From positions 1 through 64,000 of the forward strand of contig OZ223473.1 in NCBI GenBank assembly GCA_965140785.1: a DNA stretch of 64,000 nucleotides, in the 5' to 3' direction. The notes beneath the pieces were generated by a model that did not search any database, was not told the origin of the DNA, and saw nothing but the letters and a program-made list of their open reading frames with translations. Shown piece after piece: positions 32,159 through 40,527 of this stretch; within the stretch, counting starts at the first letter, position 1, and every line of letters starts with the position of its first letter. Both the position numbers and the translations under genes were made by a program. The DNA comes from an uncultured Ruficoccus sp. (lineage in GTDB: Bacteria > Verrucomicrobiota > Verrucomicrobiia > Opitutales > Cerasicoccaceae).

Positions 32159-33412
32159 CTAGGCCTGGGATTGTAACTGGTTGACTTTTTCGATGATGCT
32201 GGCGGCTTCCTCCGGCGTAAAGTTGCCGGATTCGACAAGGTCGTCGGCGGTGACACCGGCGGCGACCACCTCGACCGAGTTGATGCCCATGGCGACGAGC
32301 TTCTCGGCCAGGGGTTCGTCAATACCCAGGGACTGGGCGAGGTTGAGCCCGGCGCGCTCGGCACGCTCTTCCAGGGTGGCGGCTTCGCGCTTTTCCTTGC
32401 CGATGTCTAGTCTCCAGCCCATGAGGCGGGAGGTGAGCTTGGCGTTCTGCCCGCGGCGGCCAATGGCCACGGCCAGGTCGTCCTCGCTGACTTCGAAGTA
32501 GATACGTTTGGCGATGGGATCGATCTGCAGGTTCTTCGGAATGGCGGGTTTGATCGCCTCCTCCAGCATGGCCTGCGGATCGGGATAGTAACGGACGATG
32601 TCGATCTTTTCGCCGCCGAGTTCGCGCACGATGCTCTTGACGCGGGCGCCACGGGCACCGACGCAAGCGCCGACCGGGTCCACTTTTGCGTCGCTGCTCT
32701 GGACGCAGATCTTCGTCCGGTAGCCGGGCTCGCGGGCCATACCCTCGAGCGTGACGGTGCCGTCGGCGATTTCCGTAACCTCGAGTTCGAAGAGGCGTCG
32801 GACAAATTTGATGCTGGCACGGCTGAGGATGAGCTCGGGGCCGCGAGGGGTGCTTTCGATGGCCAGCAGGAGACAGCGGATGCGCTCGCCGGGGGCGTAA
32901 TCCTCACCGGGGACGCGCTCGCGCGGGGGCAGGACGGCTTCGGCCTTGCCCAGATCGACGATGAGGTCGCCACGTTCGCGGCGACGGACCACGCCGGTGA
33001 CGATGTCGCCCACGGAGTCCTTGTAGTCGTCGTAAATGCGTTCTTTTTCGAACTGGCGGACGCGCTGCATGATGGCCTGGCGGGCCGTCTGCGCGGCGAT
33101 GCGGCCGAGGAAGGCCGGGTCGATGTCCTTGCGGACGGTGTCGCCGACTTTGGCGTCCTTGTCGTAAATGTGAGCTTTGTCGAGGGGGATTTCGGAGGCG
33201 GGGTCGCTGAACGAGTCAACGACACGGAGCAGGGTCCACGCCTTGAGAGCACCGGTGCGCGGATCGATTTGCACTTCGAGCTCGGCGCCGGCGTTCACAC
33301 CCTTCTGAGCGGCTCCTTTGATGGCAGCCGCGATGGTGGCGATCATGTCCTCTCGGCTGATCCCCTTCTCCTTCTCCATGTATTCGAGAACGGACAGGAT
33401 TTCGTTACTCAT
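32159..33412 (-). CDS. nusA: Transcription termination/antitermination factor NusA
   Basis: [11 protein letters not shown]1 domain, [17 protein letters not shown] and AIGRRGQN. Confidence 0.97.
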
Positions 33413-33652
33413 CGATATGTTATTAGAAAAAAAATAGCGGGTACAGCGACCCACTATCCTGAGGTATAGGATGGTTGGAAAGGAAAAACCCTGCCAGTGA
33501 CGGCAGTTCTTGTCAAGCAACGGTTAAAAACCGCGCCTTTTCTTTACACAAGGCACGCGCGAGCGCCCTCAGCGCCATGTCCGGTGATCCAATAGCGGAT
33601 CGTCCTTATTGCCACGACAAGTTGACACACTCGCCCGGATCGGCACGGAACT

Positions 33653-34227
33653 TCATTGTGAGTGTGTTAGCGATTCAACCGGTTCGACAACATTTGCTTG
33701 GGCGCCATGCTTGCGCAGATAATCTCCAAAAAATCTCGCCTTGGAAGGTTCCTTCGCAAACAAAATCTGAGCCTTCGCAGCCAGTTCGAGTAAGGCCGGA
33801 GCTGGGTTTCGTTCCGACCACATGCCACGGTGCTTTTTGTCCGCGGGGAACAAAGCCCATGCAAACTGTTGCTGGCTGATATGGTTGGTACCCCGGTTGT
33901 CTATGCACTGAGTAACCAGCGTTATGTATTCATTGGGTTCTAAAATCTGGGCCGCCACAAAGAATATGGCCTTTTTCGTGTCATCGGCTGCCAGATAATC
34001 AATCTGTGGTGCGAGCGATTTTGCATGATCCTTGATGAGCGCCTCTGCCTGATTAAAAGACACGATATCACCCAAGCTACGCTGCCCCTCAATGATGGCG
34101 ACCGGATCGCGGTTTCCGGCCAGGCGGCTTCGGTGGATGCGATAGCTGAGCGTAAATCATCCACAACCGGATCAACCGCCCACAGGGTAGAACTTATCCC
34201 CAAGCAGAAGAAAAGAAGTGTTTTCAT
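33653..34227 (-). CDS. Secreted hypothetical protein, split in two ORFs by a frameshift near 34085
   Basis: ORF 33940..34227 carries a signal peptide and overlaps ORF 33653..34075. The DNA is visibly more AT-rich than the flanks. Confidence 0.55.
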
Positions 34228-34284
34228 GACTCAGCAGTCTTTCGTGGGATAAGGCGTAGCACTAGAATTCGCGGGGAAATAATT

Positions 34285-35421
34285 TCAACGCCCCGCCTTG
34301 GCGGGGACGGGCTCGATCGTGCCCTCCTCGCGTTCGGTCTGGAGGCGGAGCTGGCCGCAGGCGGCGTTGATGTCGTGGCCCTTCTCGCGGCGGACGGTGA
34401 CAGAGACCCGCGCCTCGCGCAGGATCTGGGCGAAAGCGTCCTGACGGGAGATTTCCGGGCGTACCCAGGGCAGCCCCTCGACCGTGTTGTACGGGATGAG
34501 GTTGACGTGGGCGTGCAGCTCACGGGCGATTTTGGCCAGTGCCCGGGCCTGGTCGAGCGTGTCGTTGATCTCGCGGATGAGGATAAACTCCAGCGTGATC
34601 ATCCGCCCGTGCTTGTCGGCGAAGGCCTTGGCCGCCGGGAGGAGTTTCTCCAGCGGGTACTTGCGGTTGATGGGCATGATCTGCTGGCGCACCTCGTTGG
34701 TGGCCCCGTGCAGGCTGATGGCCAGGCGCAGCCCGATCGGCTCCTCGGCCAGTTGCAGGACCTGCGGGGCCAGCCCACTGGTCGAGACGGTGATGCGACG
34801 CGCACCGACATTGAGCCCCCACTCGGCGTTGACGATGGTGAGGGCGCGCAGGAGGTTGTCGTAATTGGCCAAGGGCTCGCCCATGCCCATGACCACGATA
34901 TTGTCAAAGGAGGCCAACTCGTCGCTGGCGCGGGGCGTGGTCGGGTCCTCCTGATGGCAAACCTGGATCAACTGGTGCACGATCTCCCCGGCGGAGAGGT
35001 CGCGCTTCCAGCCAGCGAGGCCCGAGGCGCAGAACTTGCACCCGTAGGCGCAGCCCACCTGGGTCGAGATGCAAACGGTCTTGCGGGAGCGGTCCTGCCC
35101 CACCCCTTCCTGCGGGGCGCGGATGATGACTGTCTCGATCAGCGAATGGTCGCGCAGGCGCAGCAGGAACTTGTCCGTCACGTCGGCGGAGGTCTTCGCC
35201 CCCAGCCGGGCGGTCGGGGCAAAGTCAAAAGTCTCCTCCAGCCAGGCGCGCAGGGGCTTGGAGAGATTGGTCATTTCCTGGGGGCCGGCGGCGCGTTTTT
35301 TATACAACCACTCCAGAATCTGGCGTGCGCGGAAGGGCTTCTCGCCCCGTTCGGCCAGTGCCGCCGTGAGCGAGTCGAGCGTTTCCCCGTGTATCGGCGG
35401 CTTGCCCACAAATCCCTGCAT
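34285..35421 (-). CDS. rlmN: Dual-specificity RNA methyltransferase RlmN (radical SAM)
   Basis: CISTQVGCAYGCKFCASG, MGMGEP, ITVSTSG, AISLH, NLIPYN and DINAACGQL. Confidence 0.97.
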   Translation of the reverse strand: MQGFVGKPPIHGETLDSLTAALAERGEKPFRARQILEWLYKKRAAGPQEMTNLSKPLRAWLEETFDFAPTARLGAKTSADVTDKFLLRLRDHSLIETVIIRAPQEGVGQDRSRKTVCISTQVGCAYGCKFCASGLAGWKRDLSAGEIVHQLIQVCHQEDPTTPRASDELASFDNIVVMGMGEPLANYDNLLRALTIVNAEWGLNVGARRITVSTSGLAPQVLQLAEEPIGLRLAISLHGATNEVRQQIMPINRKYPLEKLLPAAKAFADKHGRMITLEFILIREINDTLDQARALAKIARELHAHVNLIPYNTVEGLPWVRPEISRQDAFAQILREARVSVTVRREKGHDINAACGQLRLQTEREEGTIEPVPAKAGR

Positions 35422-35550
35422 CCGCCTATCAAGAACGGATCGCCCGCCCCGGCGCAATCCCGAATCGGACTACCCCGCGGCAAAAGCTCGGCTTAAGCCC
35501 GCCGTGCGTCGCCCTAATAGCGCATCACGATAGGGATTGCGCCGCATCCG

Positions 35551-35566
35551 TGGCACCTTTCCTGCT
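35551..35566 (+). promoter_or_regulatory. Putative sigma54 (-24/-12) promoter
   Basis: TGGCACCTTTCCTGCT has GG-N10-GC spacing with the TGGCAC half-site, 55 nt before the Nif11-like ATG. Confidence 0.65.
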
Positions 35567-35621
35567 ATTTGGCGGACAATCCGGGCCCGTGGGTCCCGGG
35601 CCATTTGAACGCTAAGAAACC

Positions 35622-35843
35622 ATGTCTAAAGAAAACGTTGAAAAACTCCTGATGGACGGTTGGACCGACAAAAAGTTGCGCGCCAAGTACAACGTCATCG
35701 AAACCAAAGAAGACTTCGTCGCCTCGGCCAATGCCGATGGCTACGCCTTTACCCAGGAGGAGCTCGACGCGGTGCTCAAAGAGGAGGAGCTGGACTTCGA
35801 GTCCTCGGGCAACCCCCGCTCCCGCGCCATCTGGCTGCACTAG
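35622..35843 (+). CDS. Nif11-like leader-peptide family protein
   Basis: MSKENVEKLL...D..LRAK......EDFVA.A...GYAFTQEEL is the Nif11 pattern. Confidence 0.8.
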   Translation: MSKENVEKLLMDGWTDKKLRAKYNVIETKEDFVASANADGYAFTQEELDAVLKEEELDFESSGNPRSRAIWLH

Positions 35844-35918
35844 GCGGATTACATCCGCAGGCATTGAGGGGCAAGCCCCTACGGCTACCCTTTCATTCGT
35901 CAACGGGTGTGACCCGCA

Positions 35919-36245
35919 TCACTCCAGTAGTCGGCGCAGGAGTTGCTTTTCCTCCGGGCTGCGGTGACGGATGAGTTCGCCCATCTGGGCCAGGAACTCG
36001 TCCGGCTCGTAATTGGCGGTGCGCAACAGGTACAGGAGCACGCCGTCGCGGTGGATGAGGTAGCGGTGGCGCTTTTCGTGGCGCAGCCCGGCTCGGCCGT
36101 TGGCAGTGTGGCCGAGGATTTTCTGGTTCAGGAAGCAGTCGCGCACGAACTGGTCGGTCTTACCGATGACGGCGGCAACCTCCTTCGGGCTGAACCAGGT
36201 CTGGTCCGGCGGCAGCAGCCGCTCAAAGTGGGAGTTCAGTTTCAC
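35919..36245 (-). CDS. Excisionase/MerR-like HTH DNA-binding protein
   Basis: WFSPKEVAAVIGKTDQFVR ... RYLIHRDGVLLYL, an HTH_17-like pattern. Confidence 0.65.
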   Translation of the reverse strand: MKLNSHFERLLPPDQTWFSPKEVAAVIGKTDQFVRDCFLNQKILGHTANGRAGLRHEKRHRYLIHRDGVLLYLLRTANYEPDEFLAQMGELIRHRSPEEKQLLRRLLE

Positions 36246-36260
36246 GGTCGGTGCTTCCGG

Positions 36261-36596
36261 TCAGAGGCTGCGCGAGAATTTGTTCAGGGGCCGGCGCTTG
36301 CGGCGGGCATCGCGGTAGCCACGCTGGTAGGCGTCACGCCGGGCCTGCTCAACAGCATCGCCAATGCGTTCGCGGATACGCTCGGCCATCATCTCGGCGT
36401 GGAAGACATCGCAGCAAAAGACTTTGGCGTAGGCCTGCCAGGTCTTGCCGCTGCGCAGGGGCAGCCCGGTGTCGATAACGATCTCGGCGGCGCGCCCGTC
36501 GGGCTGCACGCGCAGGAGGAACTTCTGCTCCTCGGGCGACCCGGCAAGGTTGGCAGGAGTGGTGGAAACACGTGGAAAATAATGCGTGGTGGTCAT
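36261..36596 (-). CDS. Hypothetical protein with a basic C-terminus
   Basis: 111-aa ATG ORF co-oriented with its neighbours; ends ARRDAYQRGYRDARRKRR. Confidence 0.65.
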   Translation of the reverse strand: MTTTHYFPRVSTTPANLAGSPEEQKFLLRVQPDGRAAEIVIDTGLPLRSGKTWQAYAKVFCCDVFHAEMMAERIRERIGDAVEQARRDAYQRGYRDARRKRRPLNKFSRSL

Positions 36597-36645
36597 GATA
36601 AGAATCGGTATGTGGTGGATGGATGGCGGGAGGCGGAACGGGTTT

Positions 36646-36843
36646 TCAGCGGTTGGCAGCGGGTGCCGTGTCCGGCGTTGAGGCGTCGAGGTAGCCCTCG
36701 CTGTGCAGGTGTTTTTTCAGGGCGCAGGCGACGAGACTGGAGACCGAACGGTTGTCGTCGAAGGCCGCCTGCCGGGCGACCTCACGTAACTGCGGCGGCA
36801 GGCTGACTGAGACATTGACAGTGGTGGTGTTTTTCATTTTCAT
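36646..36843 (-). CDS. Small ribbon-helix-helix (Arc/CopG-like) regulator
   Basis: VNVSVSLPPQLREVARQAAFDDNRSVSSLVACALKKHL gives the beta-strand + helix + 'RSxS' turn + helix pattern. Confidence 0.75.
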   Translation of the reverse strand: MKMKNTTTVNVSVSLPPQLREVARQAAFDDNRSVSSLVACALKKHLHSEGYLDASTPDTAPAANR

Positions 36844-36959
36844 AGTGAACACATGATCACCTCAAAACCTGTCCGTCACAAGATATTTTTCTAGAATTTA
36901 TTATTTTACTATTATTTACTATTCCCTTCCTTCCATCAACCACTTACCCTCCTTCCACC

Positions 36960-37586
36960 ATGTCAGACGATCAAAGACACAAAACCGTGGGCGTGAGCTT
37001 TCCGCCAGAACTGCGCCAACGTGCCGCTGAGCGGGCCCGCGGCCTGGGCCTGTCCTTCTCCAAGTATGTCACGCTCTGCGTTGAGGCCGAGGTGGGCGGC
37101 AAGCCGCCGCAACTGGTGATGGAAAACCTGCTCCCGACTGGGACCGCCCCACTGAACCTGGAAGCGGCAGTGGAAGAAGGCTCCGACTACGGCGCGATGA
37201 AGGCCGCCTCGATCGGCTTCGAGGACGACGTGGAGGAGATCCTCAATCAGGAGGATATCTGCTACAACCGTTTCGCTCAGGTCGCACACCTGCGAACGGA
37301 TTTTCTCATCCAGCACGTGGACCCCTCCTCCGGAAAAACCCTCCGCATCGCGCTGGAGTGTAAGTATAACGTACGCAACCGCGCCACTGTCACCCTCGGC
37401 CAGTGCATTATCCTCAAAAGCCTGCCCGGCGTGGATGCGGTCATGCTCTGTGTCCCCTACCTCAAGCACTTCGACCCGCATCTGCGCGAGACCTTCGCCC
37501 AGCAGGACATTCCGGTGGTGACGCCGGACACCCTCAGTCCCGGCCTGGAGGCGCTTTTGGCCGAGCGGGCGGAGGCCGAAGCCTGA
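36960..37586 (+). CDS. RHH domain fused to a PD-(D/E)xK nuclease-like domain
   Basis: N-terminal KTVGVSFPPELRQRAAERARGLGLSFSKYV (RHH); C-terminal FEDDVEEIL...RTDFLI...ALECKY...LGQ. Confidence 0.7.
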   Translation: MSDDQRHKTVGVSFPPELRQRAAERARGLGLSFSKYVTLCVEAEVGGKPPQLVMENLLPTGTAPLNLEAAVEEGSDYGAMKAASIGFEDDVEEILNQEDICYNRFAQVAHLRTDFLIQHVDPSSGKTLRIALECKYNVRNRATVTLGQCIILKSLPGVDAVMLCVPYLKHFDPHLRETFAQQDIPVVTPDTLSPGLEALLAERAEAEA

Positions 37587-37636
37587 CGGTCATGCCACGC
37601 GCTGGAGCCACTTTCGAATGAAAGCGGAAAGCCCCT

Positions 37637-38074
37637 TTACTGACCACCGCTGGTCGTGCCCTGCGCATAAAAGAGGAAGAACAACGGGATGGCGATAATC
37701 AACACGAGCACCAGGCTGAACGCGGTAACGATGAGGTTGACCAGCAGGCCCTTGACAAAGCCGATGGGCTCATGGCGGCGGGTGAACCAGATGCCGAACA
37801 GGTACGAGTTCAACAGCAGCCACAGGAGAATGCCGGTCGGGGTGGTTGCATAGACCAGAACCGGTTTCAGTTGGACCAACTGACCGAGCAGAATGTTGAT
37901 CGCGAACCCGATCAGCGTGACCTTGAATACGATTCCATAGGCCTTGCCATAGCCGGTCATATGCCGGGTCACGATTTTCATCGCCCATTGGGCAAAAACA
38001 GCCGTGATCAAGCACAGGAACGCGCACATCCCGACTCCGATCAACAGAGCAAAAATTAATCCTATAGCTTCCAT
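37637..38074 (-). CDS. Hypothetical membrane protein (about 4 TM)
   Basis: 145-aa ATG ORF with four hydrophobic segments. Confidence 0.65.
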   Translation of the reverse strand: MEAIGLIFALLIGVGMCAFLCLITAVFAQWAMKIVTRHMTGYGKAYGIVFKVTLIGFAINILLGQLVQLKPVLVYATTPTGILLWLLLNSYLFGIWFTRRHEPIGFVKGLLVNLIVTAFSLVLVLIIAIPLFFLFYAQGTTSGGQ

Positions 38075-38300
38075 AAATTAGACGGCTCTATAGCAACAAC
38101 AGGTGAATTCCTTATTATCAAGTCATTTATAGCACCAGTTTTTTTCGGTCTCGTTACTTTTCAGAGACGGGCGTCGTTACAAACAAACGGCCAACCGGGA
38201 CTGGTCTGCTTGAGGACTGCTCGCTACGCCTTCGGAAAAGCCTACCGGTTAAAATAAAAATTGCACCCCGCGGGCTCATCGTTGTTCCTTGTCGGCACGT

Positions 38301-39744
38301 ATGCCGGTCAAGATCCACGACACACTCAGTAAGACCAAGCAGCCGTTGGCCCCCGCCGACGGCGAGACCTTCCGCTTCTACTGCTGCGGGCCCACCGTTT
38401 ACGGGCCCGCCCACATCGGCAACTTCCGCACCTTCCTCGTGCAGGACGTGCTGCGCCGCACTCTGGAGGTGGACGGCCTGACACTGCGCCACGTGCGCAA
38501 CATCACCGACGTGGACGACAAGACCATCCGTCAGAGCCAGGCCGAAGACCGCACGCTGGCCGAGTTCACCGCGCACTGGACGGACAAGTTTCACGCCGAC
38601 TGCGCCGCGCTCAACCTCCTGCCCCCGCACGAGGAGCCCCGCGCCACCGCCCACATCGCCGAGCAGGTATCGATGATCGAAAAACTCATCGCCGGCGGCC
38701 ATGCCTACGCCGCCGCGGACGGCTCGGTTTATTTCAAAGTCGCCTCCTGCGAGCACTACGGCGAGCTTTCCGGGCTCGACCGCAACGCCCTGCGCACGCA
38801 GAACGTCAACAGCGCGGGCGAAGCCAATGACGCCGACGAATACGACCGCGAGAGCGTGACCGACTTCGCCCTGTGGAAGGCCCGCAAGCCCGACGACGGC
38901 GAAAACTTCTGGAAAAGCCCCTGGGGCGAAGGCCGCCCCGGCTGGCACATCGAGTGCTCGGCCATGAGCGTCAAATACCTCGGTGAGGGCTTCGACCTGC
39001 ACGGCGGCGGCATAGACCTGTGCTTCCCGCACCATGAGAACGAGATCGCCCAGAGCGAGTGCGCAACCGGCTCGCGGCCCTTTGCCCGGCTGTGGTTCCA
39101 CAGCGCCCACCTCATGGTCGAGGGCAGCAAGATGTCCAAAAGTTTAGGCAACCTCTACACCCTGGAGGACCTGCTGCAAAAGGGCTTCCGCCCCATGGAC
39201 ATCCGCTACGCCCTCATCAGCGGCCACTACCGCCAACAGCTCAACTTCACCCTCAACGGCCTGAAAGCCGCCCGCTCCGCCCTGGAAAAGATGGAGAAAA
39301 CCCTCCGCCCAATCCTCCAGCGCCTGGGACTCTCCGAGGAAGACTTCCGCCACTGGATCAAGCCCTGCCCGCTGGTCACCACGGGCATGTTCGCCCCGCG
39401 CTTGGGAAAAGCTCTCCGACGACCTAAACGTACCCGCCGCCCTCGGGGAAATTTTCTCCGTGCTGGGCGACCTGGCCAACCCGACGCTTCATGACTCCGC
39501 CGTGGCTGGCCAGGTGGAGGCCTTCGGCGCCCTGCTCTACGCGCTCGGGCTCGATCTGTTCACCGCGCAGGATCAGTCGGCAGCCGCGGACATCCCCGAG
39601 GCCATCCGCGCCCTGGCCGAGGAACGTTGGTCCGCCAAGCAGGCCCGCGACTGGGCCAATGCCGACCGCCTCCGCGACGAACTCCTCGGACAAGGCTGGA
39701 AAATCCTCGACCACAAAGACGGCTACGACCTGGAAAAAGCGTGA
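38301..39744 (+). CDS. cysS: Cysteine--tRNA ligase, frameshift near 39394
   Basis: [38 protein letters not shown] and KMSKS. The anticodon domain ([10 protein letters not shown]...[12 protein letters not shown]) is in the next frame. Confidence 0.96.
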
Positions 39745-39827
39745 GGCAGCACAGCCTTTTCACGGCGATCCAGCACAAGCGCCCGTCTGGATTGACAAGA
39801 TCATATTAGTATTTTAACTCGTGTTGT

Positions 39828-40366
39828 GTGAAAAAACTGATACTAGCCGCGCTACTCACGCTTTCATTCACCGGGACCAGCCATGCGCTGCTCCAGATCA
39901 CCCTCTCTACCGCCGATCAAACCCTGACCGTCACGGGGGCCGATGACGGCGGGGCCAACTTCAACATCGACCAACTGAAGTTTGTCGCCAGTTGGGCCTA
40001 TTCGGACGGCTCGGCCCACACCAGCTACGGGTCCGTCGCAATGGCCAACTACTTTCCCTTGAACGGTGGCTCCGGCACCACAGCCAGCGGCTATCTGCGC
40101 GTTTACAATGACGGCCTGGTCTTCGACATTGAAAGCGGGAATAGCTTTGGGTTCATCGAGGGCGGCTTTAGCTCGATCAGCTATGCCGGTTTGAGCGAGC
40201 TTGGTCGGTCCAAACTCGAAAGCTTCGTCGGCGTCACCCTGACCCTCGCCGAAGGCAGCGACTATAATCCCGTCAGTGTTACCGCTGTCCCCGAGCCTGC
40301 CATCTACGCTGCCGTGACGGGCCTGACAGTACTGTGTCTCATCTTCCTGCGCGCCGTCGCAAGTAG
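39828..40366 (+). CDS. PEP-CTERM sorting-domain protein; probable indel near 40351
   Basis: Signal peptide and VPEP + TM. One added C gives the expected basic tail FLRRRRK* at 40366 instead of the ORF-track end at 40388. Confidence 0.85.
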
Positions 40367-40396
40367 GCCATCGCATACATTCGCCTGAGTATTCCC

Positions 40397-40425
40397 CAAA
40401 CGGCACTCTGCGGTGCCGTTTTTTT
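40397..40425 (+). terminator. Intrinsic terminator
   Basis: AAACGGCAC-TCTGCG-GTGCCGTTT followed by a T run. Confidence 0.75.
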
Positions 40426-40527
40426 GTGTCCCGAGTCCACAAGCTTGCTGGCGGCTGCGCCGGGCCGCCTGAGGCACTTGTGGATCGGAGAAGTTCCGCT
40501 TGCTTTTTTGGTAATTTGAGAGATGAT

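Follow-up and report, generated by a model that had tools for sequence, protein, structure and literature searches.

How a regulatory locus laid out like a phage switch comes to lie among housekeeping genes, and what it may control there, is the question raised by a four-gene module in an uncultured Ruficoccus sp. of the order Opitutales (GCA_965140785.1, contig OZ223473.1). A sequence-only reading of the 64,000-nucleotide stretch that was analysed (the window) had described a ribbon-helix-helix (RHH) protein fused to a nuclease-like domain, divergent from a small RHH gene, an uncharacterized gene and an excisionase (Xis)-like gene. It had proposed a domesticated switch that might control distant phage-derived genes or genes like those of a gene transfer agent (GTA), or else a toxin-antitoxin or defence module.

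The Module and Its Genomic Setting

All four open reading frames were confirmed in position and orientation. The fusion gene (36960..37586, forward strand) encodes a putative sensor-repressor. The other three genes are on the reverse strand: the small RHH gene (36646..36852, with a likely start at ATG 36843) heads the leftward operon and encodes a putative Ner/Cro-like commitment factor, followed by the accessory gene (36261..36596) and the Xis-like gene (35919..36245). The product of the latter is an Xis/Cox-like winged-helix protein with C-terminal helices; its putative role is that of an output regulator acting on the Mu-type particle cluster described below.

The base composition is host-like, as had been noted, with a GC content of 0.595–0.625 around the module and 0.55–0.69 across the window. 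No att-like repeat pairs were found within positions 33000–40500, in agreement with the earlier observation, and the sole tRNA lies 21 kb from the module. The genes of the window read as housekeeping, judged from their translations rather than from a family scan of each gene, and the housekeeping genes that flank the module differ between genera. Named close homologues are from Ruficoccus, Cerasicoccus and Rubellicoccus. Assignment of the locus to a Mu-type prophage was rejected, given the housekeeping flanks and the lack of contiguous MuA/MuB or structural genes.

Between the module and rlmN lies a gene with a Nif11 domain (35622–35843; Pfam match above the cut-off), convergent with the module; this arrangement was found in three genomes of the same genus, including the source genome. 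On the other side, cysS is broken into two overlapping frames (38289–39494 and 39460–39744). The gene is intact (480 aa) in three same-genus genomes, and the split is probably an assembly frameshift.

A profile search with the fusion in 251 Opitutales genomes gave matches in 46, with 24 full-length copies (E < 1e-40), in 7 families. An Xis-like gene is divergent from the full-length fusion gene, within about 1.6 kb, in 22 of the 24 copies; one exception is truncated where its contig stops, and the other has no Xis-like gene. The small RHH gene adjoins the fusion gene in 20 copies and is absent from four, while the accessory gene accompanies 14 and is absent from ten in which the fusion is intact. 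The accessory gene is present in 15 of the 251 genomes, always beside an Xis-like gene or (in one case at a contig end) a small RHH gene. The order of the genes and their non-coding spacing, including the 107-bp spacer between the divergent genes, are kept across the 7 families. Neither the fusion nor the accessory protein had a match in IMG/VR, or a family at cut-off in Pfam, PHROG, NCBIfam or PADLOC.

Among five genomes of the same genus, dN/dS was 0.08–0.43 over all four module genes: 0.08–0.21 for the fusion in all ten pairs, 0.08–0.31 for the small RHH gene in the 8 unsaturated pairs of 10, and 0.21–0.43 for the accessory gene. The four genes are real, linked and under purifying selection. 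A decayed prophage remnant without function might account for the phage-type layout, and for the one module copy (G108) in which the Xis-like gene is interrupted. However, dN/dS values well below 1, the conserved order and spacing and the housekeeping flanks rule out a decayed scrap for practical purposes, and the homologues are neither confined to prophages nor unlinked from each other. We regard a functionless remnant as extremely improbable, and the earlier view of a domesticated locus stands.

The Fusion Protein and Its Relatives

The AlphaFold (AF2) model of the fusion has a pLDDT of 88. Residues ≈62–208 match PD-(D/E)xK nucleases; the best structural matches were Can2 (Z 12.6, rmsd 5.2, 128 aligned) and XisH (Z 10.5, rmsd 2.5, 107 aligned), and the top Foldseek match was PspGI (E 2e-4). 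The nuclease domain that had been proposed from the spacing of a few residues is borne out by the model, which has the core α/β PD-(D/E)xK fold. The putative RHH domain (residues ≈8–46) has helices at 16–28 and 33–46 in the monomer model and a weak match to YlcI/YnfO (E 0.003). The noted resemblance between the N-termini of the two RHH proteins was recovered in a profile–profile alignment over 47 columns (E 2.6e-4), with a probability of just 42%. The small RHH protein gave a weak match to Pfam RHH_5 (E 2.8e-4, below the cut-off) and weak matches to Arc-like repressors in PHROG. The accessory protein is modeled with a pLDDT of 95 as a three-stranded sheet and a long helix. It had no clear fold match (best Z 6.0) and no usable match in the ESM Atlas, which does not imply a new fold.

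The active-site-like residues of the fusion are E88 (at 37221), D114 (37299), E133 (37356) and K135 (37362), so that the E/D/E/K set is intact in the source genome. In close homologues, E88, D114, E133 and Q148 are identical in 33 of 33, and K135 in 30 of 33. Over the 24 module copies, D114 is present in all and E133 in 23, but K135 is kept in just 15 (R in seven, A in one, S in one), and one further fusion copy (G006) lacks the motif. Because the lysine is kept in so few copies, a role for the domain as a sensor appears likelier than cutting.

The same nuclease-fold domain also occurs behind other RHH heads and behind an XRE-type HTH (profile match 99.7%). A different RHH-like head is seen on this domain in P0070, P0071, P0073, P0075, P0081, P0088, P0105 and P0135. 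Lone proteins of ≈100 aa in family f2 (L096–L099, L101) have the fusion-type RHH without the nuclease domain, and are unlinked to the Xis-like gene.

The XRE-fused genes stand first in their operons. We examined 23 of 26 matches to the C-terminal domain in other Opitutales (L040–L042 and L154–L173; three short ones were left out), and in 18 of these loci the first or second downstream gene matched PADLOC (E ≤ 1e-5). The downstream genes include BREX, type I and II methyltransferases, Cas3, Cas12a, HmaA-type helicases, Dsr2 and three candidate PDC systems. The remaining five loci comprise two without a match, two with DUF499-like genes and one at a contig end. The aspartate and the lysine are identical in 36 of 36 XRE-fused proteins, and the family has at least 135 members, called XRE-HTH or hypothetical, with source names that include Rubritalea and Lentisphaerae. 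We infer that the nuclease-fold domain is a sensor carried on interchangeable DNA-binding heads, and consider the XRE-PD-(D/E)xK family a candidate general regulator of defence.

Inactive REases have been proposed as sensors of nucleotides or nucleic acids (PMC12839542). By its fold matches, the domain resembles lone or inactive PD-(D/E)xK proteins, such as XisH, SfsA and the inactive REase sensors in BREX helicases, but it differs from them in being fused to the DNA-binding domain of a transcription factor and in retaining its acidic residues. BrxR is described as leading diverse defence systems (PMC9122601), and the XRE-fused sister resembles BrxR/CapW in leading BREX, type I/II RM, Cas3, Cas12a, Hma and Dsr2 operons, with PD-(D/E)xK in place of WYL. 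The RHH-fused form in the window, in contrast, is not beside defence genes. The module was not assigned to BrxR/CapW, since it has no WYL domain, and only one of 78 flanking genes matched PADLOC (E ≤ 1e-10).

The sequence-only reading had allowed for a toxin-antitoxin or defence module. In a toxin-antitoxin or abortive infection system, the nuclease domain would be a toxic effector checked by the small RHH or accessory protein. Such a role could be read into the intact E/D/E/K set of the source genome and the invariant D and K of the XRE-fused sister at the head of defence operons. It sits poorly with the module itself, in which the lysine is not conserved and one fusion copy has no motif, the small RHH and accessory genes are missing from copies with an intact fusion, the genes are divergent rather than co-transcribed, and defence genes hardly ever flank the locus. 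On these grounds membership of the type II toxin-antitoxin systems was rejected, and we consider a toxic effector very unlikely; the sensor remains the preferred reading.

The Control Region

Neither an SOS-type box nor an IHF-type site had figured in the sequence-only reading. A 16-bp imperfect palindrome at 36845..36860 overlaps the leftward promoter at its start and −10 region, and can be made out in 22 of the 25 intergenic regions that were aligned. A matrix was built from these 22, leaving out the three regions without a visible box. Genome-wide, it gave 26 matches scoring at least 13, a score that was reached by none of 2000 random windows of the source genome. The top three matches were upstream of the genes for a Y-family polymerase (22.1) and RecA (21.9) and of the module (21.2), while the fourth and fifth (17.6 and 17.5) precede ClpB-like and pilin-like genes, so named from their translations. 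At lexA, the box scored 16.2 in G039 and 10.9 in the source genome. A recA box was found in three of five genomes (the source genome, G007 and G012, but not G018 or G039), and the box is missing at the module of G007. Of 22 XRE-nuclease promoters, just one scored 13 or more, and no such score was obtained in the scan of XRE-type Xis modules.

Since its best matches elsewhere are at the recA and Y-family polymerase promoters, the palindrome is probably a LexA (SOS) box, with LexA as its likeliest binder. The same palindrome stands at the recA, lexA and translesion polymerase promoters, and lexA is present. GAAC-N4-GTTC is a type of LexA box, and the module box resembles this type, not TGTTC-N4-GAACA, which is reportedly the LexA motif of Verrucomicrobia. 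The latter occurs a single time in the source genome and differs from the module box. Probable LexA boxes of this lineage, of the GAAC-N4-GTTC type, were observed at G000:C10:196226, C47:5852, C48:≈115830 and C39:176764.

We considered the possibility that the fusion, not LexA, binds the box, and itself senses DNA damage and represses its own operon, the particle genes, recA and the Y-family polymerase. The matrix was, after all, derived from the module promoter; the recA box is present in three module-bearing genomes and absent in G018, which has no module; and the motif reported for Verrucomicrobia occurs just once in the source genome. However, a box upstream of lexA is what LexA autoregulation predicts, and the box is also present where a fusion gene could not be found, at the particle cluster of G043 (19.0) and the lone Xis-like gene of G202 (19.3). 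Its likeness to the GAAC-N4-GTTC type also favors LexA, and binding by the fusion is in our judgment improbable.

Overlapping −35-like hexamers of the divergent promoters lie together with AT-rich TTAYTATT repeats at 36875..36923, a candidate RHH operator. TTAYTATT is present in 17 of the 25 intergenic regions, and exact searches for the repeats found only the module locus and no distant RHH regulon. A consensus promoter on the forward strand at 36875–36904 is a weak match (two found vs. 1.0 expected). An IHF-type site, ATCAANNNNTTR, at 36935..36946 on the forward strand matches the IHF consensus. It is perfect in 11 of the 25 regions, compared to 0.66 in shuffles (maximum of 3 in 100), and is always on the same strand, 88–99 nt from the box. 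The source genome has three HU/IHF genes, of which two score best against IHF models, all below the cut-off.

The Xis-Like Gene

The Xis-like protein had a weak match to HTH_17 (E 0.14), the excisionase model TIGR01764 matched 7 of 16 members of the family, and the neighbours in the ESM Atlas were Cox-like clusters at 0.94. The protein resembles P2 Cox, RdfS and BldC (HTH_17) in these respects, and shares extra C-terminal helices with Cox (PMC11963761). It differs in having no cognate integrase and in forming a separate family limited to part of the Opitutales. The gene is present in 113 of the 251 Opitutales genomes, a much wider spread than that of the fusion, but several large families lack it in the genomes sampled. 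A sample of the phylum gave matches in 6 of 251 genomes, only four of them strong, with no strong scores in other orders.

The gene occurs in four settings: the RHH module; a parallel module in which the divergent repressor is of the XRE type (38 of 41 XRE matches adjoin an Xis-like gene); a lone gene, which in several 0.8–1 Mb lineages is in single copy and often without an adjacent regulator; and, in diverged form, Mu-type prophages. In prophages of the same order, the relatives lie between repressor/ner-like genes and MuA/MuB. Among nine prophage-type loci fetched from genomes, the relative precedes MuA/MuB-like genes in six, and five of these gave PHROG matches (transposase 310 or transposition protein 296). 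All three viral contigs with a relative carry it upstream of long ORFs that resemble transposases and MuB. A quick tree of the family (74 rows, with three short or weak rows left out) did not separate the RHH-type, XRE-type, lone and prophage groups, and no order of events is therefore claimed.

The source genome has a second, XRE-type module upstream of aroC (L043:9582–10890, on G000:C4), in which a 174-aa XRE gene is divergent from an 83-aa gene and an Xis-like paralogue, with a tyrosine integrase ≈7 kb away. Where the 83-aa gene has been lost in family f2, the XRE protein is also shorter at its C-terminus, which hints at an antirepressor pair.

The Mu-Type Head Cluster

The particle cluster consists of terminase, portal, protease, scaffold/decoration, capsid and adaptor genes, mostly with fibre and tail genes as well, in an order that was kept in all 21 chromosomal regions fetched (6–40 kb, several ending at contig edges). 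Three MuA and two MuB queries gave no matches beside the 21 clusters, while a control prophage matched both; phrog_310 was not found in the complete genomes G001, G007 and G018. A single terminase was found in each of five genomes, one of them of 878 kb. PF03354 and PF04860 had no matches in five genomes, and the cluster terminase and portal were found via PF03237 and PHROG. The cluster had a dN/dS of 0.10–0.30 in one genome pair, and a tree set the 21 cluster capsids apart from the prophage capsid, though weakly (SH-aLRT 81). In the source genome, an intact, transposase-free head cluster lies at G000:C32:38762–48029 (≈38.8–48.0 kb; L180/L181), and a tail-like locus with a Dam-type methylase at G000:C45:8296–14890 (L219). 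In one lineage (L220, G061:C24:15354–28931), the cluster lies 5 kb from an intact RHH module and has a truncated capsid gene that runs into tail genes, possibly a case of particle decay.

RcGTA, CcGTA and BaGTA are gene transfer agents with separately encoded regulators. The Opitutales cluster resembles them at the gene level: its head and packaging genes, with none for replication or integration among them, are vertically kept (with weak tree support) under purifying selection, while tail and control genes lie elsewhere. It differs in deriving from a Mu-type phage, in its occurrence in Opitutales and in retaining a phage switch. The head cluster and the separate tail-like locus are a candidate gene transfer agent; we found no paper on a GTA in Opitutales, and to our knowledge few independent GTA origins are known.

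The sequence-only reading had suggested a tie between the module and distant GTA-like genes, and the Xis-like gene is indeed co-inherited with the transposase-free head cluster. In a hand count over 156 genomes, assumed to be a subset of the 251, the Xis-like gene (E ≤ 1e-10) and the capsid gene occurred together in 62, the capsid gene alone in five, the Xis-like gene alone in seven and neither in 82. The capsid profile matched 75 of the 156 genomes, 67 of them at E ≤ 1e-86, a cut that was set after seeing the data. The co-occurrence is inflated by kinship, because both genes mark one subclade. The Xis-like gene lies 3–11 kb from the cluster in G007, G061, G022 and G018, which represent four families, whereas in the source genome the module and the head cluster are on different contigs. 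The box is found directly upstream of head-cluster genes in 4 of the 21 clusters, with scores of 16.9–20.8. The source-genome cluster has a weak box of its own (11.3), and 16 clusters have no convincing promoter-side box, although several stretches ended before the promoter. The connection between module and cluster consists of this co-occurrence, the proximity and the box shared in some genomes. Most cluster-bearing genomes lack the RHH module and have the XRE-type version or a lone Xis-like gene; the RHH module is therefore not required.

The same distribution bears on the possibility that this is an SOS-regulated host module, whose Xis-like protein is a BldC-like host regulator or nucleoid protein, co-inherited with the cluster without controlling it. 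Host regulators are found among the winged-helix proteins of this class (PMC11963761), the single-copy Xis-like gene is kept in tiny genomes, frequently without an adjacent regulator, and seven genomes have the Xis-like gene but no intact capsid gene. However, the same tiny genomes retain the capsid gene (30 of the 67 genomes, at 0.8–1.1 Mb), and the Xis-like gene is close to the cluster in the four families, with the same box at both in some genomes. We consider a host regulator of this kind unlikely, and prefer a switch that acts on the particle cluster.

A Proposed Mu-Type Switch

The sequence-only reading had compared the module to the cI/cro switch of phages. The layout of a switch stood up, as a divergent, repressor-type gene facing a small regulator and an Xis-like gene is conserved; the lambda comparison did not, and Mu c/ner with a P2 Cox-like gene is the better analogy. 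The locus was not assigned to the lambda cI/Cro type, since the fusion has no HTH and S24 autopeptidase and no Pfam match, and its C-terminal domain is a nuclease fold. The early control region of Mu has a divergent repressor gene c, the Pc–Pe promoters, ner at the head of the early operon and an IHF site (PMC3820752). The module resembles it in the divergent repressor facing a small regulator that heads the early operon, and in the IHF-type site in the control region. It differs in that its regulators are RHH rather than HTH proteins, the large one with a PD-(D/E)xK domain, in having no MuA/MuB or phage ends, and in the addition of a probable LexA box.

We think it somewhat more probable than otherwise that the module is an SOS-linked, domesticated early-region switch of the Mu type, controlling a GTA-like particle cluster; control of the cluster, bistability and the particles are what we infer from the genes and motifs. 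According to this model, the head and tail genes of the phage would have been kept at other chromosomal sites, in a compact, GTA-like cluster (C32, with a tail part on C45). At rest, LexA on the 16-bp box would keep the operon of the small RHH, accessory and Xis-like genes off. The fusion, made from the opposite promoter, would provide a second lock by binding the AT-rich repeats, and IHF would bend the region as it does in Mu. DNA damage would activate RecA and remove LexA, while damaged or foreign DNA in the nuclease-fold pocket might loosen the second lock. The small RHH protein, acting like Ner or Cro, would then turn down the fusion gene and commit the cell, and the Xis/Cox-like protein would turn on or organise the particle cluster, so that a subpopulation would make DNA-packaging particles.

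No description of a module combining RHH, REase and excisionase genes was found in the literature searched, supplements aside; the large gene-neighbourhood supplements of PMC12839542 and PMC10853773 might list XRE–REase genes. The retention of a phage head cluster and an Xis-like gene in genomes of 0.8–1.1 Mb is surprising. With a candidate GTA, its putative switch and operator and a likely inducer identified, whether it is a GTA becomes directly testable in culturable relatives.

A broader proposal, which we would rate at somewhat less than an even chance, is that an ancestor of the Opitutales domesticated a whole Mu-type phage and split it into a particle cluster and a switch. This would be a new, independent kind of GTA, kept even in 0.8-Mb genomes, in which a new class of one-component regulator, with a DNA-binding head and a PD-(D/E)xK sensor, would act together with LexA to read DNA damage or foreign DNA. 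On an XRE head, the same sensor would regulate CRISPR, BREX and restriction operons in general. Such a sensor domain would define a family of regulators that lead diverse defence operons, and would bear on how defence systems are switched on.
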